From the IMG/VR virus record IMGVR_UViG_3300018080_000120: a DNA stretch of 11,087 nt. One strand, written 5' to 3'. The translations under genes and the position numbers were made by a program. Position 1 is the first letter of the stretch, and each line of letters starts with the position of its first letter. The stretch comes from a virus (taxonomy: Duplodnaviria > Heunggongvirae > Uroviricota > Caudoviricetes). The notes under the pieces are model-generated. The model made no database searches and was not told where the DNA came from. It worked only from the letters and a program-made list of their open reading frames with translations. Shown piece after piece: positions 2-11,087 of the stretch.

Positions 2-838
2 ACGATGGCATTGGATCATCCCAATCATATGACAAGATGGGAGAAGTTTAGAGTCAGTGTTTTGGAAATTTCACCAGTGACTCGGGACATGTTTAATGTT
101 ATGAAAGAAGTAGGTGCAAAAGCTGGCGGAACTGACAACAAATATGGTTGGGTAAATTATCGAAAAGTAAGATTTGATAATAACAAAATCAAAACATTTC
201 ATGTTGAGATGAGAGCGCCCGATTCAACCCTTTGTCCAAGTTATTATGCTGCAGTTGCTTGTTTGTTTTACGCAATGGCAATAAAGGCAGCTGAAATAAG
301 TAGATATGGTCTCTTGAAAGTCGGCGAAGAAGAGTGGATGGAAAAAGCAAAGCAGATGAAAAAGCTTATTCTTAATGGACGTGGTGATTGGGGAGAGGAT
401 AGGGTAGCAGATACCAGCCGATTACTGGATTACCGGGAATATTTCATTGAGGAAAGTATCGATCTTGTTAATCAGTTGAAGGGTATTCTTTTCAAAATCG
501 GACCAGCTTATGATGTCTTGAGAAAACTGGCCGAACGTCCAGCCGCATTGAGAAGGATAGAAGGAGACAGCTGGGAAGAAATAGAGAACCAATTGGCTAT
601 TGAAACTACCCAGACTGACCAAATTGAACAAAAGATGAGAGAAATCATCGAGCTGAGTCTTATTGAAGATTGCGAAGACGAGGAAGAATGGGCATTGGAA
701 GTCAGCAAGGCCATCAATGAAGATGATCAAGTTGATTTTGAAACAAGTGAAGATGAAGTGAAGAAATTTATGGATGCCAAGATGAGAGAAGGCGAATTGA
801 TATGGTCCGAATCTCTTGGTAGAATAATCGCTGTATAG
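2..838 (+). CDS. Putative COOH-NH2 ligase / amidoligase (glutamine synthetase/glutamate-cysteine ligase-like fold), probably 5'-truncated
   Basis: The frame is open from base 2 (acg precedes the ATG at 5), so the gene probably starts upstream. The segment KYGWVNY...TFHVEMRAPDSTL followed by a hydrophobic helix (YYAAVACLFYAMA) resembles the C-terminal (K/R)Y..lN...T.EfR...sTl motif of amidoligases. It sits directly upstream of a class II amidotransferase. Confidence 0.6.
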   Translation, partial: TMALDHPNHMTRWEKFRVSVLEISPVTRDMFNVMKEVGAKAGGTDNKYGWVNYRKVRFDNNKIKTFHVEMRAPDSTLCPSYYAAVACLFYAMAIKAAEISRYGLLKVGEEEWMEKAKQMKKLILNGRGDWGEDRVADTSRLLDYREYFIEESIDLVNQLKGILFKIGPAYDVLRKLAERPAALRRIEGDSWEEIENQLAIETTQTDQIEQKMREIIELSLIEDCEDEEEWALEVSKAINEDDQVDFETSEDEVKKFMDAKMREGELIWSESLGRIIAV

Positions 839-849
839 GAGAGAGAAAT

Positions 850-1668
850 ATGTGTGGTATTTTCGGAATTGCTTATTATGGTGAAACGGCTCCGCCAGCT
901 TCTCAGGCAAAAGCCATGAGGAAAGTCTGTCGGAGCCTTATGTCAGCTTCAGAGATAAGGGGGGCTGATGCTGCTGGCGTGTGTGTTTTGGCAAACAATC
1001 ATGCAACAATATATAAAAACAATACACGCGGCAGAGAAATTGTGAAGCGGCCAATGTTTAACAAAGCCCTTATAAACATAAAATCAGACCCATTTGCTCA
1101 AGCTGTGCTTGGTCATACTCGAGCGCAAACGAAAGGGACACACCATAATAATTTTAATAATCATCCAATCATAACCGAAAATGTTATTGGCATTCACAAT
1201 GGGGTAATACAAAACGATGAAAAGCTTTATGGTCCTATGAATATACCCAGAAAAGGATTGGTGGACAGTGAAGTGATCTTTCAACTCATAGATATGTATG
1301 TGACAAGAAGAGATGCAAGCCTTATAAAAGCTGTAAAGCTTACTACTGAAAAATTGTTTGGGTCATATGCATGTGCTTTTATTCATCTTCAGCACCCAAA
1401 TTACCTTACTCTTTTCCGAAATAGTGGGTACGGAAATATATATGTTTATACCTATGATACTTTTGACACCATGTTGTTTGCTTCGCTCGATACCATTCTT
1501 GATAGAGCAATAGAAAAAAATGCATGGTTTAATAAATCATATCTTTCAGACAGAGTAAAATTGAAAGATGACAGCGGCATGAGAATCAATCTTGAAAATG
1601 GCAAAACATTTTGCTTTGAAATAGAAGACGAATACAGCAACAGTTATAAATACTATTGCTGCGGTTAA
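850..1668 (+). CDS. Class II (Ntn-hydrolase) glutamine amidotransferase #1, stand-alone
   Basis: N-terminal MCGIFG (Cys nucleophile after Met removal), RGADAAG, GHTRAQT, NNHPI, HNGVIQN and DSEVI are hallmark GATase type-2 motifs. SD aggag at 837-841. Confidence 0.93.
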   Translation: MCGIFGIAYYGETAPPASQAKAMRKVCRSLMSASEIRGADAAGVCVLANNHATIYKNNTRGREIVKRPMFNKALINIKSDPFAQAVLGHTRAQTKGTHHNNFNNHPIITENVIGIHNGVIQNDEKLYGPMNIPRKGLVDSEVIFQLIDMYVTRRDASLIKAVKLTTEKLFGSYACAFIHLQHPNYLTLFRNSGYGNIYVYTYDTFDTMLFASLDTILDRAIEKNAWFNKSYLSDRVKLKDDSGMRINLENGKTFCFEIEDEYSNSYKYYCCG

Positions 1669-1682
1669 AGGGGGAGGTAAAT

Positions 1683-2666
1683 ATGTATTCAAAAAGGTTA
1701 AAGTACTATAGAGAAGTCAAAGAATGGAATAAGGAAACCACGCTTAGTGGGACCCTTGTAGCTATGTCTCACGGACTATCTGTAGGCACTCCATGCCTTG
1801 CATCAATAAACAAAGGCACATCTCATAGGCGGCCAGTAAATAGAGCGACGAAAAAAATAGCTGATAAATATGGGTTATTAGACCCATTTGATCCTGCTTA
1901 TGAATCTACCAAAAAAAGCGAATATTCCAAATTGTTAGAATTGATTAAAAATGGGAGCGATATTTCTACAATCCAAAAGCTGTTGTGCTCTAAATACGAA
2001 CTGATTGAAGTCATCATTCCTTTTGTGGAACTCGGATGTGGTATGGGAGATATGACTTCTGTAGTAATTCCACCTCAACAGATTTCTTGTAATTCCCAGA
2101 TTCCTATAATATATGATGACAACTTTTATACTGCGGAAATAGCCTTAGATGATTTCCCAAGGCCATCATTTGTTATTTACCAACTAACTACTCATAGGTT
2201 TGTAAATTATGAGATAAGAATCGGACAATCAAATGTAAAAAAGGTGCAAACCAAATTCAACAAAATGGTAGCAGCTTTCAAAAAATTCTTTCCATTTAAC
2301 ATCTGTACCTATTATCGTAGTAATACAAGTTCAGAAGTATTATTGGACACGTTGTCGATAAGCTTCTATAAACTAAGTGATGTCATACCCGTTTTTGATT
2401 ATAGAAGCTGCAAAGAAGGAATGTGTATGGAAGTAACGCTTGCTAACTCAAGCATAAACAAAATTTACTCAGTGAACCCTAAAACCACCGCAAAATTCAG
2501 ATTTTTATTTTCTGCTACAAAAGAAAACATTCTTTCCATTGATGGAGAGAAGATAACGAGGGGTAAATCTGAAAAGCCAGTAGATGCCGGGATAAAATAC
2601 ATTTATAATTGTATGAACGCCAATATCCCGAATGACAATATAAATATAAAAACTATAGGGTGTTAG
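1683..2666 (+). CDS. Hypothetical protein (327 aa) containing a SAM-binding motif I-like sequence ELGCGMGD
   Basis: Long ORF filling the gap between the two amidotransferases. Start moved from TTG 1656 to ATG 1683 because SD ggaggt lies at 1673-1678. No family recognised with confidence. Confidence 0.8.
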   Translation: MYSKRLKYYREVKEWNKETTLSGTLVAMSHGLSVGTPCLASINKGTSHRRPVNRATKKIADKYGLLDPFDPAYESTKKSEYSKLLELIKNGSDISTIQKLLCSKYELIEVIIPFVELGCGMGDMTSVVIPPQQISCNSQIPIIYDDNFYTAEIALDDFPRPSFVIYQLTTHRFVNYEIRIGQSNVKKVQTKFNKMVAAFKKFFPFNICTYYRSNTSSEVLLDTLSISFYKLSDVIPVFDYRSCKEGMCMEVTLANSSINKIYSVNPKTTAKFRFLFSATKENILSIDGEKITRGKSEKPVDAGIKYIYNCMNANIPNDNINIKTIGC

Positions 2667-2679
2667 GAGGATAAAAATT

Positions 2680-4782
2680 ATGTGCGGAATAGTTGTAGGA
2701 TTAACATTTGGCGAACTACCAGAAGTAGAAGAAAAAATAAGGCAAAAAATGCTGCGATGTATGACAACAGAGCTTTTACTTCTCACCGAATCGAGAGGTA
2801 AAGATGCTACTGGAGCTGCAGCCTTATTTGATGATGGTAGATATATAGGCATAAAAAGAGGGGAAGAAGTTACTTCTTTCTTATCGGTCTTCGGAAACTC
2901 TAAGGAATATTATGGGGGATTTCTGAAGGTGTGGGAGAAACATCCAGCACCAGTCAGAGTTTATTTAGGACATTGTAGAGCTGGAACTGGTGGTGCAAAG
3001 GAAGATAACAACAACAATCACCCAATCAAAATAAGAAACATGATTGGAATCCATAACGGTGTTGTTCACAACGACAAAGAGATATTCGAAAATCTCGGTT
3101 GTAAAAGAGACGGCGAAGTTGATAGTGAGGCCATTTTCCGCTTGTTTGATCATTTTACTAACCATGGAAAAGAACCGTTCACCATGGATATGATACAAGA
3201 AGTTGTGAGAAGGTTGGATAGTTTCCACACTGTTTGCCTTTTCAATGCAGACAATCCATATCAAGTGCCCATATTCAGAGATCGTAGGCCATGTTATCTT
3301 GTATTCATCAAAGAATGGGGATTATTATTTGCCATATCAGAGCCTGGCTTCTGGGCTACTATGAGGTATCGGTATGAAAGAATGGCTAATTATTATGATG
3401 CAAAAATGCCGTCGTTGTTTCGATGTACTATCGAAAAGAAGGAACTACCAGATGATTCCTGCATAATATTTGATCTGACCAAAGGAGTAGAAGATGACAC
3501 TGTTATTGATGACCTCGGTGAATATTCCAAAATACTGAGGACAAACAAAATATGGCAGAAACCAACCACAACCTATACAAGAGGAACTGATTATCAGAGA
3601 AACACATGTGGTTATAAACCTGGATCAGGTAATAACAACAGTGATTCTGATGATAGCACTAGAGCAAAGAAGAGAAGAGTTTTTGACAGGCTGGAGAAGA
3701 AATATGTTATCAAACAAGGTGATAAAGTTCTCAAAGATGATTCATCTATCACAATTGATGTTGATAATTGTGGTGACAATGATGACGACGATGATAGTGA
3801 GACCGGTGGATCTGAGGACAACACTATACATACTCCTGTGACTACAGATTTTGAAGAGCAGGAGAATTTGGGAACAAAAGCCGATAAGACAGACCTTACA
3901 GAATATACGCAAACACAATATAAATCAAAGGAAAAAAAGATAATTGATTCCAAAGAATATGTCACGGTTTACAATTACCTTAAAAGTGAAGGAAGTCTAA
4001 ACGAGCCTCTTTATTCTGAAGATATTGGTGATTTTCTTGCTGGCCGAATCCAAATTGAAATCAAAAGAAGAAAAATAGTCGCGCTAAATCTTCCCGGATA
4101 CTATCTTACATTAAAGCTAAGGGATGTTAAAAAATGGAAAGACTTTCTTGAACTAGTGAATAAGAGAAACTCGGAATTAAAAAAGTTAGCTCTTGATATT
4201 CCTACTCCAACATATAAATATGCAACCACTGATGCAACTACTGATGATGATATTCCTACTATCGAGGCTGAAGTGGTCGATGAGGACGATAAGGATAAAG
4301 GCAAAGATGTAGGTGAAGTTGAAGTAGATATGGATATTGAGCATGCTGCCATTGGCCTTAAAGCAGAATCTTTGTATAAACTAGCTCCAATTCAAGAGAA
4401 AGGATTTATCAATATAAAAGAATTGATAGAAGCAGTTGATATAAAAGACGAAAAGACTGCAAAAGATGTAGGCCCAGTTTTTATTGCTAATCGAGTTGTA
4501 TCTAGAAGTTGGAAACATGGATTTCTTCACGGATATATGTGTAGTCAACAGGAAGATGTCGAAAATCTTAAGAATATAATCTCTCTTTTAGCTGGGGTTA
4601 TTACCGAGAAGAAACATAAAGCTCGGTTGGCAAATGCTGCAATGAAATCTGGTTCATCTGTCGATTTGAATATGGAAAAGATAAAGAAATTGTTCAGTGG
4701 AACCAAAAGACTGGAAGAAATTGCCAACATACTAAATGATGCCCACCAGTATGCTAATACAGGAGGAGAAAAGAAGAAATGA
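2680..4782 (+). CDS. Class II glutamine amidotransferase #2 with a long acidic/helical C-terminal extension (700 aa)
   Basis: MCGIVVG, RGKDATG, GHCRAGT, NNHPI, HNGVVHN and DSEAI lie in the first ~290 aa. SD aggagg at 2665-2670. The remaining ~400 aa are of unrecognised function. Confidence 0.92.
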   Translation: MCGIVVGLTFGELPEVEEKIRQKMLRCMTTELLLLTESRGKDATGAAALFDDGRYIGIKRGEEVTSFLSVFGNSKEYYGGFLKVWEKHPAPVRVYLGHCRAGTGGAKEDNNNNHPIKIRNMIGIHNGVVHNDKEIFENLGCKRDGEVDSEAIFRLFDHFTNHGKEPFTMDMIQEVVRRLDSFHTVCLFNADNPYQVPIFRDRRPCYLVFIKEWGLLFAISEPGFWATMRYRYERMANYYDAKMPSLFRCTIEKKELPDDSCIIFDLTKGVEDDTVIDDLGEYSKILRTNKIWQKPTTTYTRGTDYQRNTCGYKPGSGNNNSDSDDSTRAKKRRVFDRLEKKYVIKQGDKVLKDDSSITIDVDNCGDNDDDDDSETGGSEDNTIHTPVTTDFEEQENLGTKADKTDLTEYTQTQYKSKEKKIIDSKEYVTVYNYLKSEGSLNEPLYSEDIGDFLAGRIQIEIKRRKIVALNLPGYYLTLKLRDVKKWKDFLELVNKRNSELKKLALDIPTPTYKYATTDATTDDDIPTIEAEVVDEDDKDKGKDVGEVEVDMDIEHAAIGLKAESLYKLAPIQEKGFINIKELIEAVDIKDEKTAKDVGPVFIANRVVSRSWKHGFLHGYMCSQQEDVENLKNIISLLAGVITEKKHKARLANAAMKSGSSVDLNMEKIKKLFSGTKRLEEIANILNDAHQYANTGGEKKK

Positions 4783-6125
4783 AAAAACAGTTAATCTTAG
4801 TTATTTCTCCCCGAATGAATTCTAACAGAAAAAAGGATAGGAATGAAGATCGTCTTATCCGAATGGGGAGTAAAACGAGAGCTAATCTTGGCTTAACGAA
4901 TGATAAAACTGTGGAACTGTGGCCAAATACCAACTCTCAGGAAAGAATATCAAGAAGTAAAGTGCTGACTATTTTTCAAGCATTTTCTTCCGACCTTAAA
5001 AATTTAAAGAAGTCTGGAGTAAGTACAGACGAATTTAATAGATCAGGGTTCGTGACGGAAAAAACATTTCATTATATATGCTCCGATGGAAGGCGTAAGA
5101 AAAGTGATATATGGCTTGCGGATTCCATTGAAGATACAGTTATCGGAGCAGATCCAGAATTCGCACTTTATGATAAAAATAAGAATCTTGTACATTATGC
5201 TGGCCATGTGCCGGGGTTTCCTTTCAGTGGCGAACTGTCTTCTGATGGACCATTAGCAGAAATAAGACCTGATCCTGATGAAAACATTGAAAAATTCATC
5301 AAGAATATCGGGAAAATTTTAAAGACCAGCCCAAGCAGAAAATCTATTGAAAAATTTGATTGGCTTGTCGATCCATATTTCCGTGGGCGACCTGCTGATA
5401 ATCCTAATCAAGGTATTAGAGATTGGACAATTGGTGGTCATATTCACATAGGTACGCCATCTTTATTAAGAGAGTCTGAATTAATGACCGAAGCCACCAG
5501 TTATTTTCAGAAAGCCTCACACTATCCGGGATTTTTGCCCTTTTTGAACAAAGCGCTCGATGAATATATTGCAATTCCATTGATGAAAGTGGCTGGCAAA
5601 GAACCATCCGTAAAAAGAAGAAAGTCCGGATATGGTAAATATGGTAGCTATCGTGGAGAAAATGTTGGAAGATTGGAATACCGAACTTTAAGTGGTATCT
5701 GGCTCGCTCATCCTGAAATAGCAAAAGCCGTTATCGGAGCCACAAAAGCGGTTTCTGATGCTTTCTTTAAAATACTTGAAGAAGGAGAATACAAACGGAA
5801 TTTGTTACCCCTGCCTAAAAGTTCTTATAGCAGGGTATTCCACGCTGATTATGACGGATGGAAAGACTCTAAGGCGATGAAAGAAATTCAAGCAATAAAA
5901 TCTTCTCATCGAATGAAAGAAATATTACATGAAGGACAAATGACATATAATAAACAATACTATACAAAACTAAGAAAGATGTTCAGATCTCTATCAACTT
6001 ATAAAAAATATGCAAAATATATTGACAGATTTCTGGAGATAGTATCTTTACCGAACGAAAATTTGAAAAAGATAAATCATAATATCAAATATGGTTGGGT
6101 AGAAGGTGCAGACTTTATTATATAA
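4779..6125 (+). CDS. Phage phiEco32-like COOH-NH2 ligase type 2 with an extra N-terminal domain
   Basis: Family motifs IGADPEF (5142-5162), DGPLAEIRP, GGHIHIG and LEYRTLSGIWL. ATGA overlap with the upstream amidotransferase. SD aggaggag at 4761-4768. Confidence 0.88.
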   Translation: MKKQLILVISPRMNSNRKKDRNEDRLIRMGSKTRANLGLTNDKTVELWPNTNSQERISRSKVLTIFQAFSSDLKNLKKSGVSTDEFNRSGFVTEKTFHYICSDGRRKKSDIWLADSIEDTVIGADPEFALYDKNKNLVHYAGHVPGFPFSGELSSDGPLAEIRPDPDENIEKFIKNIGKILKTSPSRKSIEKFDWLVDPYFRGRPADNPNQGIRDWTIGGHIHIGTPSLLRESELMTEATSYFQKASHYPGFLPFLNKALDEYIAIPLMKVAGKEPSVKRRKSGYGKYGSYRGENVGRLEYRTLSGIWLAHPEIAKAVIGATKAVSDAFFKILEEGEYKRNLLPLPKSSYSRVFHADYDGWKDSKAMKEIQAIKSSHRMKEILHEGQMTYNKQYYTKLRKMFRSLSTYKKYAKYIDRFLEIVSLPNENLKKINHNIKYGWVEGADFII

Positions 6126-6136
6126 GGAGGAGTAAT

Positions 6137-7216
6137 ATGAGCAAATATTTATGGTATTCTGGAGCAACTGATATAACAGGAAAGAAACTGGCGGAAGCAC
6201 TCAACCTCGAAGGCGGTAAAGCCAAACCGAAAAGCAAGGACATTGTGATTGGGTGGGGAACCAAAACAAAAGAGGGCGTGAATCTGGGAAAGGCAAAGGT
6301 TTTGAATCATCCGAACACCATTCGGAAAAACCGAAACAAATTGACCACATTGAAAACCCTGGCTGCAAATCAGGATGTTTCTTCGGCAATTATGAGTTTT
6401 AGCTCCGCCAATAATGTGGACAGCATATTGGGAGAAATTTCCCTGCCGATGGTAGGTCGAACCAACTATCATCAAGGCGGAAAAGGTTTTTGGCTCTGCT
6501 TGACCAAATCCCACATCACTCGTGCTCTTAAAGAAGGCGCTCAATATTTTCAGAGTTTCATTGATATCAACAATGAATACCGAATTCATGTTGCATTCGG
6601 TAAGGTAATTTATGCGGTCAAAAAGGTAGAAAATGCCTCTCTGGAAAGCTGGATAGCCCAGAGAAAAGAGAAGATTGAAGACTATGCTCAGAAAAACAAC
6701 GTAAATCTGGACGCGGCAACAATGAAATACGTACTCGAACGTCTTGCCAAAGAGGCCAAGCTGCCGGATATAATCATCCGAAGCAACCGGAAAGGCTGGA
6801 AATTCAGTAACGTCCCAATTGCCAGCTTAAGCACTGCATTGAAAAATGCCGCTGTCAAGGCCGTTGAGGTTATAGGATTGGATTTTGGAGCAGTCGATTG
6901 TGCAATTTCAACCAGCAACAAACCCTATATCATCGAGATCAACAGTGGTCCTGGCCTAAAAGGTACCGCTTTTGAAAAATATGTGGATGCTTTCAAGGCC
7001 AAAATATCTGAACTGGAAGCACCGCCGGCTCCTGCCGCCAAGAAAGCTCCTGCCGCCAAGAAAGCCCCCGTGGCTGCAAAGAAAGTCGCTGATGGAGTAG
7101 GCGCGGATAATGCCGCTCCTGCCATCAAGGGTGAAGCAATGGTTCATATAATGAACGAAGTGAAAAGTGCCGACGAAGCGAGGAAGGTTCTTGACCTATT
7201 AATGGGAAAGGCTTAA
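6137..7216 (+). CDS. ATP-grasp peptide ligase (RimK/YheCD/phiEco32-like), 359 aa
   Basis: VIGWG, NKLTTLKTL, GRTNYHQGGKG loop, EYRIHV, GLDFGAVD and IIEINSGPGL (E-x-N metal-binding motif). Start moved to ATG 6137 behind SD aaggagg at 6124-6130. Confidence 0.92.
   Translation: MSKYLWYSGATDITGKKLAEALNLEGGKAKPKSKDIVIGWGTKTKEGVNLGKAKVLNHPNTIRKNRNKLTTLKTLAANQDVSSAIMSFSSANNVDSILGEISLPMVGRTNYHQGGKGFWLCLTKSHITRALKEGAQYFQSFIDINNEYRIHVAFGKVIYAVKKVENASLESWIAQRKEKIEDYAQKNNVNLDAATMKYVLERLAKEAKLPDIIIRSNRKGWKFSNVPIASLSTALKNAAVKAVEVIGLDFGAVDCAISTSNKPYIIEINSGPGLKGTAFEKYVDAFKAKISELEAPPAPAAKKAPAAKKAPVAAKKVADGVGADNAAPAIKGEAMVHIMNEVKSADEARKVLDLLMGKA
7028..7084 (+). repeat. In-frame 18-bp tandem repeat encoding APAAKK, within the ATP-grasp C-terminal linker
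   Basis: gctcctgccgccaagaaa occurs exactly twice (7028-7045, 7046-7063), followed by a degenerate 21-bp third copy gcccccgtggctgcaaagaaa (7064-7084). Confidence 0.9.
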
Positions 7217-7217
7217 T

Positions 7218-7697
7218 ATGAACAAATTTAGATTGACAATCACGTCTGATTCAATAGCTGCCCAAATAGCCAGCTTATTAAATGCTGGCGGGCAGTTATT
7301 TTATCACTTCAATAAAAACACGATATTACAGAGCGATGTCCAATATCTAATTGAGCTGGACAAGGACAAAGTCACAGGTGTAATAGGGCTGCAACAAAAA
7401 ACGGCTCGGGTCACAGAAATAAAACATCTATGCGTCCATCCAGATTATAGGCGTAAAGGTTTGGGCAAAAAATTGCTTGAAATGGCTATTAAAGCCACAT
7501 CAACAGAGTTTTTATATGGTACGGTGAGAGAAAGTAATCATGTTAACATCCGGAATAATTTCAGAGTTGGAATGAAAGCCATTGGAAAGTTTCGAGGCAG
7601 AGGATGTAATGTGATAATATTTGCAAGGAGGAAAGATGGCATTGGGTATCGAATACAAAAAGGGCAAACTGAAAGGCCTGCATTATATAGTAGTTGA
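7218..7697 (+). CDS. GNAT-family N-acetyltransferase
   Basis: EIKHLCVHPDYRRKGLGKKLL contains the acetyl-CoA-binding motif A (V.P.YR.KG.G..L). Size 159 aa. Starts 1 nt after the ATP-grasp stop. Confidence 0.92.
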   Translation: MNKFRLTITSDSIAAQIASLLNAGGQLFYHFNKNTILQSDVQYLIELDKDKVTGVIGLQQKTARVTEIKHLCVHPDYRRKGLGKKLLEMAIKATSTEFLYGTVRESNHVNIRNNFRVGMKAIGKFRGRGCNVIIFARRKDGIGYRIQKGQTERPALYSS

Positions 7698-8454
7698 TCT
7701 GAAGCTGAAGAAAGAAACTTTACATCGTAGAGATGTAAAAGGACTATTTATAGGTGTACGATCTCTTTACGAAAAAGATGCTGCCGTCGTATTGACGAAA
7801 GATCCATTTATCTGGATTCAAAAAGGTGAGTATGTTCACATGCTCAATCTTACGAGATATGACGTGACAACAATAGAAATATCGGACGGTAGTGTGTCAA
7901 GCAGCACTATTTATACTGATCTTAACCAAGATTTGGCGCGGGAAAGATTGCAGCTCCTAATGGATTGTGTGACATCAGAGAAAAGAGTGCATGCCAATGG
8001 ATTGATTGACATCAATACATACAAAAGAATTCCAGAATACCTGGTGAAGGGAGTGGAAGAAGACTCAGAAATAAAACGTGGCACCACGACATTACCATCG
8101 CAGAATAAGTATACTAGTTCCTCTTCAACTACGACCAAGAAAACATGTACCGGAAATAAAAAACAAACTCAATCTTGGATAAAGAAAGTCCATACCAGTA
8201 CGTTCAAACGGACAACAAAATATGGTATTAAAAATGCTATGGAAAATATGGCGGCAAAAATAGACGCCATAAAGAATGGTACATATGAAGCGCCACAACT
8301 AAAAGAGATACCTGGAGACAAAGAGAAAGAAGAGCCGGCGGATAACACTCCTAAGTCTGCAATCACAGAAAATTGCGGTCATGTGCCTGCTGCCTTGGCA
8401 GCTCTCGCTAGCTATTCGCACGATGATGATCTTTTACCGGCAGGAATGTGCTAA
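7636..8454 (+). CDS. Hypothetical protein (272 aa) with a Ser/Thr/Lys-rich linker
   Basis: Long ORF. Start moved from TTG 7621 to ATG 7636 behind SD aaggagg at 7625-7631. Overlaps the GNAT 3' end by 62 nt. No family recognised. Confidence 0.8.
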   Translation: MALGIEYKKGKLKGLHYIVVDLKLKKETLHRRDVKGLFIGVRSLYEKDAAVVLTKDPFIWIQKGEYVHMLNLTRYDVTTIEISDGSVSSSTIYTDLNQDLARERLQLLMDCVTSEKRVHANGLIDINTYKRIPEYLVKGVEEDSEIKRGTTTLPSQNKYTSSSSTTTKKTCTGNKKQTQSWIKKVHTSTFKRTTKYGIKNAMENMAAKIDAIKNGTYEAPQLKEIPGDKEKEEPADNTPKSAITENCGHVPAALAALASYSHDDDLLPAGMC

Positions 8455-8460
8455 TTTCAC

Positions 8461-8490
8461 CTAGCAAAATCTTTATTTTATTCTATAATA
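8461..8490 (+). promoter_or_regulatory. Possible sigma-70-type promoter upstream of ruvB-sigma-cca-like genes
   Basis: Perfect TATAAT at 8484-8489 in the only sizeable, AT-rich intergenic gap. The hexamer 17 bp upstream (ctagca, 8461-8466) matches TTGACA at only 3 of 6 positions. Confidence 0.35.
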
Positions 8491-8511
8491 CATATAAAAA
8501 GAGGTAAGAGT

Positions 8512-9567
8512 ATGAAAATAATAGGCAATAAGGACATTATGAGTCAGCTTGCAGTTGCCGCTCATTCTGCCACTGTAGAAAATAGATCTCTGCCTCACAC
8601 TCTTTTAAGTGGGGCCGCTGGTTGTGGTAAAACCAGTACAGCTCGCCATATCGCTGAAAGAACTGGTTGTGGTATAATAGAAGTTCCGCCGGAGGGCATA
8701 AAATCTCGCGATGACATGTTGAGAATACGAGAAGCTTTTGATATCACTGGATATGATAGAATTGGAAATAAAGTCGGCAAAATAAGACCATCCATTCTAT
8801 TTATTGATGAGATTCATCGACTTCCCATCCGAGGCCAAGAGCATCTGGGTATAGCTATGGAAAATTGGATAATACCTCTTGATGAAAATCAAGTGAAACT
8901 TGGTTTGAATCTCAAAGAAAGTGTCCAATTTGGTTCAGCTGCCAAAGGCAGGGGTAGATGGTGTCCTCGGTTTACTTTGATTGGTGCAACAACTGATGAT
9001 GGACTACTTTCAAAACCATTTAAAGATCGATTTAAAATGAAATTCATATTCAATACTTATTCATTAGAAGAATCGATCGAAATAGTTAGTGTTCATGCAG
9101 AAAGATTGAAAGTGGAAATCACAGAAGATGCAGTGGAAGCTGTAGCGAAAAGAGGTCGAGGAGTGCCAAGAATTCTTGTGGGTCTCCTTGAAAGATGTAG
9201 AGACACTGCAATATCAGCCAAACTAAATACGATAAATGTAAATGTATGTAAAGTAGCTTTCATGTTGATGGGAGTAGACAACACTGGCCTAACCCAAACT
9301 GATATAAAGATATTGAAAACTCTTTATAAAAGCGGAGATCCTGTTGGTCTGGACAATCTGTCAATAATTGTAAATGAGTCTCGTAAGACCATCAGCGAAA
9401 CTATTGAACCATATCTTGTACAAAGGGGATTTATTTTGAGATCCTCAAGAGGCCGAACTTTAACAAAGAAAGGCCGGGAATATTTGATAGAAAATGGACA
9501 TGTTGAAGGAGAAGAAAACAATGTCGATTATATTGATATCCCATTAGATTACGAAAGGAGCATCTAA
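8512..9567 (+). CDS. ruvB: Holliday junction branch-migration ATPase RuvB homologue (divergent)
   Basis: Walker A GAAGCGKT, Walker B ILFIDEIHRL, FTLIGATT, arginine-finger KDRF, sensor-2 RGVPRI, and C-terminal winged-helix motifs PVGLDNLS and IEPYLVQRGFILRSSRGR. SD agaggt at 8500-8505. Confidence 0.9.
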   Translation: MKIIGNKDIMSQLAVAAHSATVENRSLPHTLLSGAAGCGKTSTARHIAERTGCGIIEVPPEGIKSRDDMLRIREAFDITGYDRIGNKVGKIRPSILFIDEIHRLPIRGQEHLGIAMENWIIPLDENQVKLGLNLKESVQFGSAAKGRGRWCPRFTLIGATTDDGLLSKPFKDRFKMKFIFNTYSLEESIEIVSVHAERLKVEITEDAVEAVAKRGRGVPRILVGLLERCRDTAISAKLNTINVNVCKVAFMLMGVDNTGLTQTDIKILKTLYKSGDPVGLDNLSIIVNESRKTISETIEPYLVQRGFILRSSRGRTLTKKGREYLIENGHVEGEENNVDYIDIPLDYERSI

Positions 9568-10472
9568 TGCCAATAAGAGAAAGAATAATCAAGGATGAGA
9601 AAGGCAATCCAGTTATAGATCCAGAAACGAATGAACCGAAAGTGGAAGTGGAAAAATTCTTGCCACATTTTCTTGGCGATACAGAGGCAGAAGCAACTGC
9701 AACTCTCAAAGAATACGAAAAAACAATGAAAATATTGGCTGACAAATTTCACATGATCACCGGTCTTGACGCCGACGATCTGAAAAGTGAATGTATGATT
9801 GGACTGGCAAGAGCAAAAAGAGATTTTGAAGAAGAGCGCAGCGAAATGTTTCGAACATTCGCCATCTACAAGATGAAAGACGCTCTCCGTGAATTCACAA
9901 CCAAACAAATGCTGGATGTTAAAGTTCCTCAGTATGTGAAAGATGCAGAGAAACTAATAAATGATCTGGCAAAATTGGTTGAAGCATGTCATGTAGTAAA
10001 AAATGCCAGCTTCCGTGACATCTGGTTGATGTCAGAAGCATGTGATGGGGATAAAAATATCCAAAAAGATATCGAGCGGATAAGAGAAAGCTTGACTAAT
10101 TTAGCGAACAGGTCTCATACCAGTGTAATTCAGTTATTGGAGAGAGCAGAAATGCTACCATCATCCACAATAGAAATAACTGACCACAATGTTTCGAATA
10201 TATCTATTGATACACACGAAGATGGGATGTTGGATAAGTTAAACATAAATGAGACCATAAAGAAATTGAAAAATTTCTTAACGGAAGATGAATATAAACT
10301 GCTATATGATTACTACGTGAACGGAAAAACAGAAAGGGAATTAGCCGTAGAATTAGGCATAAAGGCTCCATCAGTCCATATAAGATTACACAATACGTTA
10401 ACCAAGGTGAAAGAGCATAAGAAGGAGATCTTAACCGATGGAAGCGATCAAATTACTGAAGAGGCTGAATAA
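9567..10472 (+). CDS. RNA polymerase sigma-70 family sigma factor (group 3-like)
   Basis: Region 2: DDLKSECMIGLARAKRDFEEERSEMFRTFAIYKMKDAL, then VKVP. Region 4 HTH: LTEDEYKLLYDYYVNGKTERELAVELGIKAPSVHIRL. TAATG overlap with ruvB. SD aggag at 9556-9560. Confidence 0.9.
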   Translation: MPIRERIIKDEKGNPVIDPETNEPKVEVEKFLPHFLGDTEAEATATLKEYEKTMKILADKFHMITGLDADDLKSECMIGLARAKRDFEEERSEMFRTFAIYKMKDALREFTTKQMLDVKVPQYVKDAEKLINDLAKLVEACHVVKNASFRDIWLMSEACDGDKNIQKDIERIRESLTNLANRSHTSVIQLLERAEMLPSSTIEITDHNVSNISIDTHEDGMLDKLNINETIKKLKNFLTEDEYKLLYDYYVNGKTERELAVELGIKAPSVHIRLHNTLTKVKEHKKEILTDGSDQITEEAE

Positions 10473-11087
10473 AGAAACAGCAGCTGACGTATATTACTCA
10501 GGTGAATTCGTTAGAGATGTCGCAAGAAGAAAAAGATCAAACGACATAAGTGTAATCGTAAGGAATTTACCTTTCAAAAAAATTCTTAGTTTTATCAATT
10601 CATATAAAAAACGTCTGCACAAAATCTATTCTAACACAAGAAATAGTTATATACGATTTCAGCTGAAGGAAAGTAAGAACACGGTACATGTTCATCTGCC
10701 TCAAAAAAATGGTAAGCATAGTCCTTACTATACCTTAAACGAAGATGCTCGATGTCGAGACTTCACAATAAATGCCATGTATCTATCAGTTCAATCCATG
10801 TCAAGAGATCTTATAATAGATCCAGTTGGTGGACTGAAAGATATAAAACGGCGAAAAATAAAGACAGTGAGGGCCGCTCGGTATTTAGTAAAAAGAAATC
10901 CAGCGTCAATGATAAAAGCGGTGGCTTTATCTGCTAAGCTCAGATATCGAATAGATAACAACTTATTTTATGCCATAAAGGTCAATCATCAACTTGTGTC
11001 TCGGGTAAAAACTTCAGACATAAGAAATTCATTGGTAAATATACTACTTAGCCACCGACCGTCGAGATATTTTCGGATAATGAATGA
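10438..11087 (+). CDS. CCA-adding enzyme / poly(A) polymerase (class II nucleotidyltransferase) homologue with degenerate catalytic motifs; 3'-truncated and not in the ORF track
   Basis: Manual translation from ATG 10438 (SD gaaggag 10421-10427) stays open to the window end: MEAIKLLKRLNKETAADVYYSGEFVRDVARRKRSNDISVIV...LNEDARCRDFTINAMY...IIDPVGGLKDIKRRKIKTV...RNPASMIKAVALSAKL...DIRNSLVNILLSHRPSRYFRIMN. RDFTINAM and DPxGGLxD are diagnostic of the family. Confidence 0.88.
   Translation, partial: MEAIKLLKRLNKETAADVYYSGEFVRDVARRKRSNDISVIVRNLPFKKILSFINSYKKRLHKIYSNTRNSYIRFQLKESKNTVHVHLPQKNGKHSPYYTLNEDARCRDFTINAMYLSVQSMSRDLIIDPVGGLKDIKRRKIKTVRAARYLVKRNPASMIKAVALSAKLRYRIDNNLFYAIKVNHQLVSRVKTSDIRNSLVNILLSHRPSRYFRIMN

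Follow-up and report, generated by a model that had tools for sequence, protein, structure and literature searches.

The stretch of viral DNA analysed here, IMG/VR record IMGVR_UViG_3300018080_000120 with 11,087 nucleotides (nt) and hereafter called the window, holds most of a nine-gene module with the order A1-A2-G1-U3-G2-A3-ATP-grasp-GNAT-U8. As judged from sequence comparison, this block is an expanded form of the phage amidoligase cassette known since 2009. The long open reading frames (ORFs) of the window are all located on the plus strand in the ORF list, and those across 2-8454 are joined by overlaps or by gaps of not more than 14 nt only; seven co-oriented ORFs lie within 2-7697. A preliminary description of this DNA had reported these seven as tightly packed genes, six of them devoted to amide-bond chemistry. 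The packing is as described, with gaps and overlaps of up to 14 nt, but the ORF at 2-838 is half of a gene and the block is larger. Five window genes (G1, G2, A3, ATP-grasp and GNAT) were placed above the Pfam gathering cut-offs in accordance with the claimed amide chemistry, and PHROGs and NCBIfam agree with Pfam on the window genes, whereas the half gene of A2 is assigned at the fold level only and the gene at 1683-2666 (U3) has no recognisable amide chemistry. Searches with Pfam, PHROG and NCBIfam gave no family for the ORF 2-838, U3, U8 and the 440-residue C-terminal part of G2.

The cassette extends past the left edge of the window, its 5' part lying upstream of position 1. A look-up with G1 gave an 85-kb ENA contig (L001) carrying this same DNA, and base 1 of the window corresponds to its position 9152. 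On this contig the A2 gene occupies 8340-9989 and encodes 549 amino acids (aa). It starts 812 nt upstream of the window, and the ORF 2..838 is not a complete gene but the last ~277 residues of A2 (residues ~272-549), forming its C-terminal half. Another PF14395 ligase, A1, is found upstream of A2 and marks the start of the block, and U8 (7636-8454) is most likely its last member. Of the two COOH-NH2 ligases described earlier for the window, one is a PF14395 ligase (A3) and the other is half of the divergent A2, while three are present across the whole cassette.

Both A1 (402 aa; E 6e-24, 85 bits against a cut-off of 25) and A3 (4779..6125, 448 aa; E 1.7e-25, 90.1 bits against a cut-off of 25) match PF14395, the phiEco32-type COOH-NH2 ligase type 2, and they are paralogous to each other (blastp 1.5e-22). 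The motifs DPEF, AE.RP, G.HIH.G.P, R..YG, LEYR and HP were found to be invariant in an eight-sequence alignment as well as in 21 and 25 orthologues of the two ligases, and the invariant residues of A3 are E127, E161, R163, H221, H223, R280/281, E300, R302 and H311. This set of conserved Glu, His and Arg residues is as expected for glutamine-synthetase (GS)-like ligases, where they may act as metal and phosphate ligands.

Each of A1 and A3 also carries a separate N-terminal domain of the first ~90 residues (4779-5063 in A3). In the PDB, a 30-sequence profile of this domain matched the designed double-psi beta-barrel (DPBB) proteins 7dvf and 7dvc with E of 5.8e-10 and 1.1e-9, and the natural CDC48-N structures 7dg9/7dg7 with E of ~0.02. 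Pfam recognised MazE_antitoxin in 8 of the 30 N-domains (best 6e-5) and CDC48_N in 5 of them. Going by these profile matches, the domain is a cradle-loop barrel of the DPBB/AbrB-MazE-like type. This barrel is missing from the PF14395 proteins of the cultured phages Bjorn and Lbo-JY46, which are 265-271 aa long. Upstream of A1, a 294-aa ORF (A0, L001 6263-7147) has a weak DUF8385 label in a precomputed Pfam table and no match in our own Pfam scan. A0 precedes A1 here and in the locus L007 (30% identity), but L003 and the majority of the other loci do not have it, which makes it an optional extra member.

In case of A2, no Pfam match was obtained at E<=10 with the fragment or the full protein, and none with NCBIfam. 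Alignment of the A2 family with the A1/A3 profile by hhalign gave a probability of 0.2, i.e. no similarity, and a PDB profile search with the A2 family returned nothing meaningful. The ESM Atlas model of A2 (predicted template-modelling score, pTM, 0.66) has PF12224 clusters as its neighbours, with a template-modelling score of 0.73 by hit and 0.40 by query over 249 residues, and GCS2 was a neighbour by features at 0.83. The family alignment contains the motifs EFEF, G.EIITVGRR, HMH and FHVEMR, the last with invariant H338, E340 and R342 encoded within the window part of the gene. Because of these structure neighbours and conserved motifs, A2 is accepted as a divergent GS-fold amidoligase, an assignment that the model carries at the fold level only. 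The N-terminal half of A2, upstream of the window, has 16 invariant Cys between residues 53 and 135, and this insert is probably metal-binding.

G1 (850..1668, 272 aa) is a stand-alone class-II amidotransferase domain of the N-terminal nucleophile (Ntn) type, matching GATase_6 with 40.8 bits (cut-off 27, E 2.7e-10). G2 (2680..4782, 700 aa) matches the same family with 39.8 bits (cut-off 27, E 5.7e-10) in its first ~210 residues only; its class-II amidotransferase domain covers residues ~1-260 and is followed by a 440-aa extension made up of short conserved helices and acidic low-complexity linkers. G1 and the N-domain of G2 are paralogous (blastp 6e-23). When G1 was aligned to the glutaminase domain of E. 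coli GlmS (1xff), its HTR, HNG and DSE motifs fell at the equivalents of Arg73, Asn98-Gly99 (the oxyanion hole) and Asp123, and R91, N117-G118 and D139 of G1 are conserved at >=97%. The protein begins with MCG[IVL] in 35/35 of the G1 orthologues that are complete and in 37/37 G2 orthologues, the two G1 orthologues lacking it being cut by contig ends, and C2, R100, N126-G127 and D148 of G2 are invariant in 37 orthologues. The G2 extension found nothing in Pfam, PHROG or, as a 31-sequence profile, the PDB; its AlphaFold2 model has a predicted local distance difference test (pLDDT) of 33 and is unusable, and the ESM Atlas model is poor.

The gap between A2 and G1 is 12 nt, and G2 and A3 overlap by 4 nt in an ATGA at 4779-4782, so that they are translationally coupled. 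These pairings suggest two glutaminase/ligase couples, A2-G1 and G2-A3, with the partners assigned from adjacency. The preliminary description had ascribed ammonia release from glutamine to both amidotransferases; two class-II domains with their catalytic residues are indeed present, but ammonia release is one reading only, as this Ntn domain has gamma-glutamyl amidohydrolase activity in EgtC. In ergothioneine biosynthesis, EgtA (a GCS2 ligase) and EgtC (a class-II amidotransferase) form an established ligase/hydrolase pair, and the cassette similarly pairs a GCS2/GS-fold carboxylate-amine ligase with a stand-alone class-II Ntn enzyme. G1 and G2 may accordingly be EgtC-type gamma-glutamyl amidohydrolases which remove a transient gamma-glutamyl group, a mechanism that can be combined with any reading of the substrate. 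G1 is a bare glutaminase domain with no synthase domain, both proteins give weak EgtC matches (4.8e-5 and 2.2e-4), and the cassettes of cultured phages add the gamma-glutamyl-specific GGACT/GGCT and peptidase C26. On the other hand, the best NCBIfam matches of G1 and G2 are GlmS-type glutaminase domains (9e-22 and 5e-11), in line with the 1xff alignment, whereas the EgtC model reaches 22.8 bits against an equivalog cut-off of 218.65. The residues binding the alpha-amino and alpha-carboxyl groups of Gln are equally compatible with free glutamine, the tight A2-G1 and G2-A3 pairing is the expected look of a glutaminase/synthase pair, and the block lacks EgtB, EgtD and EgtE partners. The hydrolase mechanism is somewhat improbable in our estimate.

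The ATP-grasp ligase (6137..7216, 359 aa) matches PF08443 (RimK) with 30.8 bits (cut-off 21, E 2.8e-7) and phrog_2599 at 4e-37. With rimK_fam (NCBIfam TIGR00768) it gives 8e-14 and 51.6 bits, below the 143.4-bit subfamily cut-off; it is RimK-like in fold only, and the match does not imply the substrate. K163, D254, E267 and N269 are invariant in 22 orthologues, and the protein carries an A/K/P-rich linker and a conserved C-terminal helix. The GNAT N-acetyltransferase (7218..7697, 159 aa) matches PF00583 (Acetyltransf_1) with 45 bits (cut-off 20.7, E 1.6e-11). Its best NCBIfam match is rimI (5e-10, 39.6 bits, below the 86.4-bit cut-off), and motif A (R/Q-x-x-G-x-G/A) is present as RRKGLG with G81 and G83 invariant. 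A loss of the GNAT gene in the strain L005, where the gene call is missing, was considered and rejected, the sequence there being identical. The nearest families are the RimK alpha-L-glutamate ligases for the ATP-grasp and RimI for the GNAT, and by analogy this suggests a possible glutamate tailing of a protein C-terminus together with acetylation of an N-terminus. However, both scores are well below the family cut-offs, and no S6-like or S18-like substrate is encoded nearby.

Two proteins of the block remain unannotated. U3 (1683..2666, 327 aa), encoded between G1 and G2, belongs to a family with 108 representatives at 50% clustering among 1.84 billion proteins, and a Pfam domain was found in 0 of 81 members. 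An AlphaFold2 model of U3 built from the family alignment is confident (pLDDT 90.4, pTM 0.86), and it gave no match at E<=0.001 with Foldseek against the PDB, clusters of the AlphaFold database and BFVD, or in the ESM Atlas shape search. Comparison of the U3 family with the A1/A3 family by hhalign showed no similarity, and a PDB profile search with U3 gave nothing meaningful. VIA-align recovered an SH3/KOW-like barrel only, at residues ~12-140 with Z<=6.5; a hot-dog-like fold for residues 150-300 was too faint (VIA Z 3-4) and was not accepted. On the basis of the model, U3 would consist of an N-terminal SH3/KOW-like barrel and a C-terminal alpha/beta domain matching no known fold among those searched. 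Its invariant residues are mostly polar (D145, R172, D222, S227, D233, N282, D287 and R293), a pattern that could fit a catalytic or ligand-binding site. U3 always lies between G1 and the long amidotransferase G2, and it adjoins G2 in 52/52 loci. The predicted complex of U3 with the G2 extension scored 0.00, which speaks neither for nor against binding.

U8 (7636..8454, 272 aa) always comes after GNAT (20/20 loci) and has no Pfam, PHROG or NCBIfam match. It shows a conserved N-domain, an S/T-rich linker and an FKRTTKY motif. The 5' end of U8 overlaps the 3' end of GNAT by 62 nt at 7636-7697, and the overlap is likewise 62 nt in L004, 41 nt in L007 and none in L009; the true start of U8 may lie further downstream.

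The conservation of the block was studied in 56 related metagenomic loci, which include relatives of G2/U3 on six contigs and 49 loci from JGI metagenome contigs found by a scan with the U3 alignment, all annotated with hidden Markov models (HMMs) built from our own family alignments. In 55 of them the genes are contiguous sub-runs of the order helicase-(A0)-A1-A2-G1-U3-G2-A3-ATP-grasp-GNAT-U8-RuvB-sigma. No foreign gene was found anywhere between A1 and U8, and only the spacing before A1 and after U8 is variable. With one arrangement shared by 55 of the 56 loci, the clustering is far beyond chance, and the co-occurrence in related genomes that the preliminary description depended on has been borne out. 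The identity of U3 to that of the window is only 24-37% across the loci while the order is kept, and the conservation is therefore deep. Across the 19-37 orthologues compared for each family, the catalytic residues do not vary. Between the two strains represented by the window and L005, which are 98.9% identical, 78 synonymous and 21 non-synonymous codon changes were counted in A2/G1. The sole exception to the gene order is L052, where A3 falls into two ORFs (approximately 3798-5200) by a single stop; this could be a sequencing error or a pseudogene.

Among cultured phages, the phiEco32-type amidoligase cassette was reportedly predicted by Iyer, Abhiman, Burroughs and Aravind in 2009. The smaller cassette has been reported in many cultured tailed phages such as phiEco32, 7-11, LUZ24, PaP3, tf, RIO-1 and CW02 (PMC5498523). 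In LUZ24-like phages PF14395, PF12224, a ~486-aa amidotransferase, ATP-grasp and a GGCT-like gene are consecutive (PMC3890496), and a RIO-1-like seven-gene cassette is described as common to phiEco32, 7-11, PA11, tf, MR299-2, LUZ24, PaP3 and CW02 (PMC5498523). The window has a PF14395 ligase, a class-II amidotransferase and ATP-grasp co-oriented within 2680-7216 and recurring in its relatives, which is the defining gene set of the phiEco32-type module. Moreover, our HMMs for A1/A3, for G1 and the N-domain of G2, and for ATP-grasp match gp20, gp23 and gp25 of the phage Bjorn and their Lbo-JY46 counterparts, with E of 6e-8 to 2e-19 by the best model. In Bjorn the run consists of gp20 (PF14395-like), gp22 (Amidoligase_2), gp23 (class-II amidotransferase, 586 aa), gp25 (ATP-grasp) and gp26 (GGACT), followed by primase/helicase. 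The relative order of gp20, gp22, gp23 and gp25 is that of A1, A2, G and ATP-grasp, and both cassettes adjoin replication genes (primase/helicase and DNA polymerase in Bjorn). The earlier proposal that the window holds an elaborated version of the phiEco32-type module (PF14395 ligase, class-II amidotransferase, ATP-grasp) is upheld by the PF14395 match, the HMM matches and the Bjorn order.

The phiEco32/LUZ24/tf/PaP3/Bjorn/RIO-1 cassette shares with the window a PF14395 ligase, an Amidoligase_2-fold ligase, a long class-II amidotransferase and ATP-grasp. The window cassette differs in that its PF14395 ligase and class-II amidotransferase are duplicated, both PF14395 copies have the cradle-loop barrel, the amidoligase has the 16-Cys insert, and U3, GNAT and U8 are added. 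The cultured-phage versions commonly include GGCT/GGACT or C26, whereas Pfam found none of these within A1-U8, and the C-terminal parts of Bjorn gp23 and of the 729-aa Lbo-JY46 protein are not matched by the HMM of the G2 extension. Because the Bjorn order of type 2 ligase, amidoligase, class-II amidotransferase and ATP-grasp equals A1, A2, G and ATP-grasp, the simplest history is an internal duplication (G1...G2-A3) together with a gain of U3, GNAT, U8 and the barrels and a loss of GGCT. The strict conservation of nine genes, the U3 family and the barrel-bearing PF14395 ligases are new here.

Lbo-JY46, a cultured Leptolyngbya phage (PP438436, locus L064, 125 kb), likewise has PF14395, ATP-grasp, a 729-aa class-II amidotransferase fusion and Amidoligase_2 co-oriented. 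Its gene order is different, it has an extra SNO class-I amidotransferase, GGCT and two C26 peptidases, and it is without U3, GNAT, U8 and the barrel domains. The Lbo-JY46 cluster at 20.8-29.3 kb reads SNO amidotransferase, GGCT, PF14395, C26, a 536-aa ATP-grasp, the 729-aa class-II amidotransferase, a 495-aa Amidoligase_2 and a second C26, and comes directly after the PncB and PrsA genes. This phage could serve as an experimental model.

Our literature searches, in agreement with the preliminary description, gave no experimentally defined product for any version of the cassette since the 2009 prediction. The small cassette has been read as a cell-surface or peptidoglycan modification system without experiment (PMC5498523; PMC10580990). 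In RIO-1-like phages it was named a 'peptidoglycan modification cassette' (gamma-glutamyl amidoligase, second amidoligase, ATP-grasp, amidotransferase and GGCT) and was hypothesised to alter the cell surface (PMC5498523; PMC10580990). In the same manner, the present block might remodel the stem peptides of the peptidoglycan of the infected host and block superinfection, and MurT/GatD provides a precedent for the Gln-dependent amidation of a stem-peptide carboxylate (PMC3267633). The same literature searches, however, returned no experimental test of such a role in any phage. Pfam and NCBIfam showed no signal peptides, Mur-ligase domains or lipid-II-related genes in the block, and its strict linkage to helicase, RuvB-like and sigma genes does not hint at an envelope function. 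A cell-wall target is very unlikely.

GS-fold ligases and ATP-grasps form acyl-phosphates and couple them to amines. Ntn glutaminases either set ammonia free or split gamma-glutamyl amides, and the GNAT reaction is the acetylation of an amine. With these activities in hand, our best explanation, to which we give a probability of about 0.55, is that the block is a co-transcribed nine-gene module, descended from the phiEco32/LUZ24/RIO-1-type cassette, which builds a peptide-like adduct on a bound macromolecule. We infer every chemical step, as well as the nature of the substrate, from family chemistry, on top of the observed gene content, catalytic residues, synteny and kinship. In a scan for promoters and terminators, the sites were no more numerous than in shuffled sequence. 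In the proposed mechanism, A1, A2 and A3, having the glutamine-synthetase fold, and the ATP-grasp would convert a carboxylate into an acyl-phosphate and then join it to an amine. G1, beside A2, and G2, coupled to A3, would supply Gln-derived ammonia to the neighbouring ligase for conversion of a carboxylate to a carboxamide, or alternatively would trim gamma-glutamyl amides, and GNAT would acetylate a free amino group. Jointly the enzymes may build and edit a short peptide-like adduct, probably glutamyl-containing. It would not be released as a free metabolite but put together on a bound macromolecule, of which a protein is the likeliest kind. A macromolecular target is favoured because of the barrels of A1 and A3, the 16-Cys cluster of A2, the SH3-like barrel of U3 and the long tethers of G2, and also because the block is invariant and placed among replication and transcription genes.

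A free small molecule as the product was also considered, such as a soluble N-acetylated amidated di- or tripeptide or a gamma-glutamyl amine (a NAGGN-like osmolyte or a polyamine conjugate) serving infection or packaging. GCS2/GS-fold ligases and ATP-grasps typically yield small peptides and gamma-glutamyl compounds, and the RimK-family matches point to glutamate ligation. Further, Gln-dependent amidation, peptide ligation and N-acetylation parallel NAGGN synthesis by AsnO and Ngg. This parallel, which the preliminary description had drawn, does not go beyond the types of reaction and is an analogy of activities only, as Pfam and NCBIfam found no Asn-synthetase or Ngg-type domain in the window; the N-acetyl-capped amidated oligopeptide proposed there as the product is pure conjecture. 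For a dipeptide, a set of four ligases and two glutaminases plus two proteins that do not look enzymatic seems too large. Enzymes of soluble metabolites do not usually bear accessory binding domains, as four proteins do here, and an invariant core position amid replication and transcription genes is atypical of auxiliary metabolic genes. A soluble product is quite unlikely.

The main rival to a protein adduct, and a serious one, is hypermodification of DNA or RNA bases, in which the ligases would extend a carboxylate or amino handle on the phage nucleic acid with amino acids or ammonia and GNAT would cap it, giving the genome protection against host nucleases. In all loci the block lies between helicase/SSB genes and a RuvB-like ATPase followed by a sigma factor, and the small cassette of Bjorn abuts primase/helicase and DNA polymerase. 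Cradle-loop barrels of the AbrB type and Cys clusters often serve to bind nucleic acids, whereas DPBB barrels of the CDC48-N type bind proteins. The phage amide ligase CmoY uses ATP to join glycine to 5-carboxymethylcytosine in DNA; some of its relatives have a class-II glutaminase domain, and ammonia taken from Gln has been proposed as their substrate (PMC12783734). In viral contigs, thymidine hypermodification genes occur together with genes for amidoligases and amidotransferases (PMC8989533). CmoY is, however, of a different fold, that of Asn-synthetase (PP-loop, AMP-forming), and not GS-like or ATP-grasp, and it is linked to CmoA/CmoX. In the loci L001, L005, L007, L009 and L010, the Pfam labels of the genes called within ~10 kb include no dUMP hydroxymethylase, 5-HMUDK, aGPT-Pplase, CmoA/CmoX or TET/JBP. 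Base hypermodification appears unlikely, although it is the most serious competitor.

Several points weigh against the adduct on a bound macromolecule as well. Inside the block no conserved gene for a small acidic peptide and no obvious tail-bearing substrate protein was seen. The case for a macromolecule stands solely on the accessory domains, which could mediate the assembly of an enzyme complex instead. The assignment of A2 has no sequence-level support from Pfam, hhalign or the PDB profile, and no activity can be assigned to U3 or to the G2 extension, which together account for roughly a quarter of the block. The phage origin depends on PHROG matches and the gene content of the flanks, and structural genes were not seen.

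A bolder form of the macromolecular adduct can be speculated, in which the block is an essential, lineage-defining machine writing a multi-residue, amidated and acetylated peptide-like mark on a polymer. This could be the DNA of the phage itself or an important protein of phage or host, for instance the transcription apparatus encoded next door. U3 would then be a new enzyme or carrier fold at the centre, with the G2 tail as a scaffold and the A1/A3 barrels gripping the substrate. As a whole this proposal is doubtful and fairly unlikely. With its extra binding domains and the obligate partner U3, this richer invariant version narrows the search towards a macromolecular target, and the lineage gives handles for pull-downs, co-expression and mass spectrometry. 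A DNA target would make this a hypermodification chemistry of a new class, and a protein target would make it a new viral system of post-translational tagging. Under either target, the U3 family, with 108 clusters, a confident model and no match in the fold searches made, merits structural and biochemical study.

The cassette is carried by a large uncultured phage with a genome of >=124 kb, and it would be a fixed core component in one lineage of large sediment phages. The window gave no match by megablast against 50,697 phage records; tblastn against the phage records gave no match with A3 and, with G2, matches through the glutaminase domain only. No relatives came up when IMG/VR was scanned with A3 and with the U3 alignment.

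A helicase lies on the upstream side of the block, with helicase/SSB noted in the flank. Downstream, 8512-10472 encodes a RuvB-like AAA+ ATPase, which has the RuvB_N, lid and winged-helix domains, and after it a sigma-like factor that matches region 2 and region 4 weakly. Wherever the contig reaches far enough, the RuvB-like gene comes after U8 (17 loci) and the sigma gene after the RuvB-like gene (15 loci). The last ORF of the window (10438-11085), open at its 3' end, is CCA/poly(A)-polymerase-like (PolyA_pol head domain, 1.4e-13), and its full version in the relatives is a CCA-adding-type enzyme of 441-453 aa with an HD domain.

In the comparison of the window with L005, 99 of the 108 changed codons fall in the C-terminal half of A2 and in G1 (1-1668) and 9 in the other 9.4 kb, a pattern suggestive of a recombination tract with one end close to the G1/U3 junction. 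A further locus, L065 (JAWLDD010000125.1), is a 7.1-kb contig of low coverage in a metagenome-assembled genome of Candidatus Atribacteria. It carries G1-U3-G2-A3-ATP-grasp-GNAT-U8 with U3 split by a frame break, and it is probably a mis-binned phage contig, giving a hint at an Atribacteria host that is weak at best.

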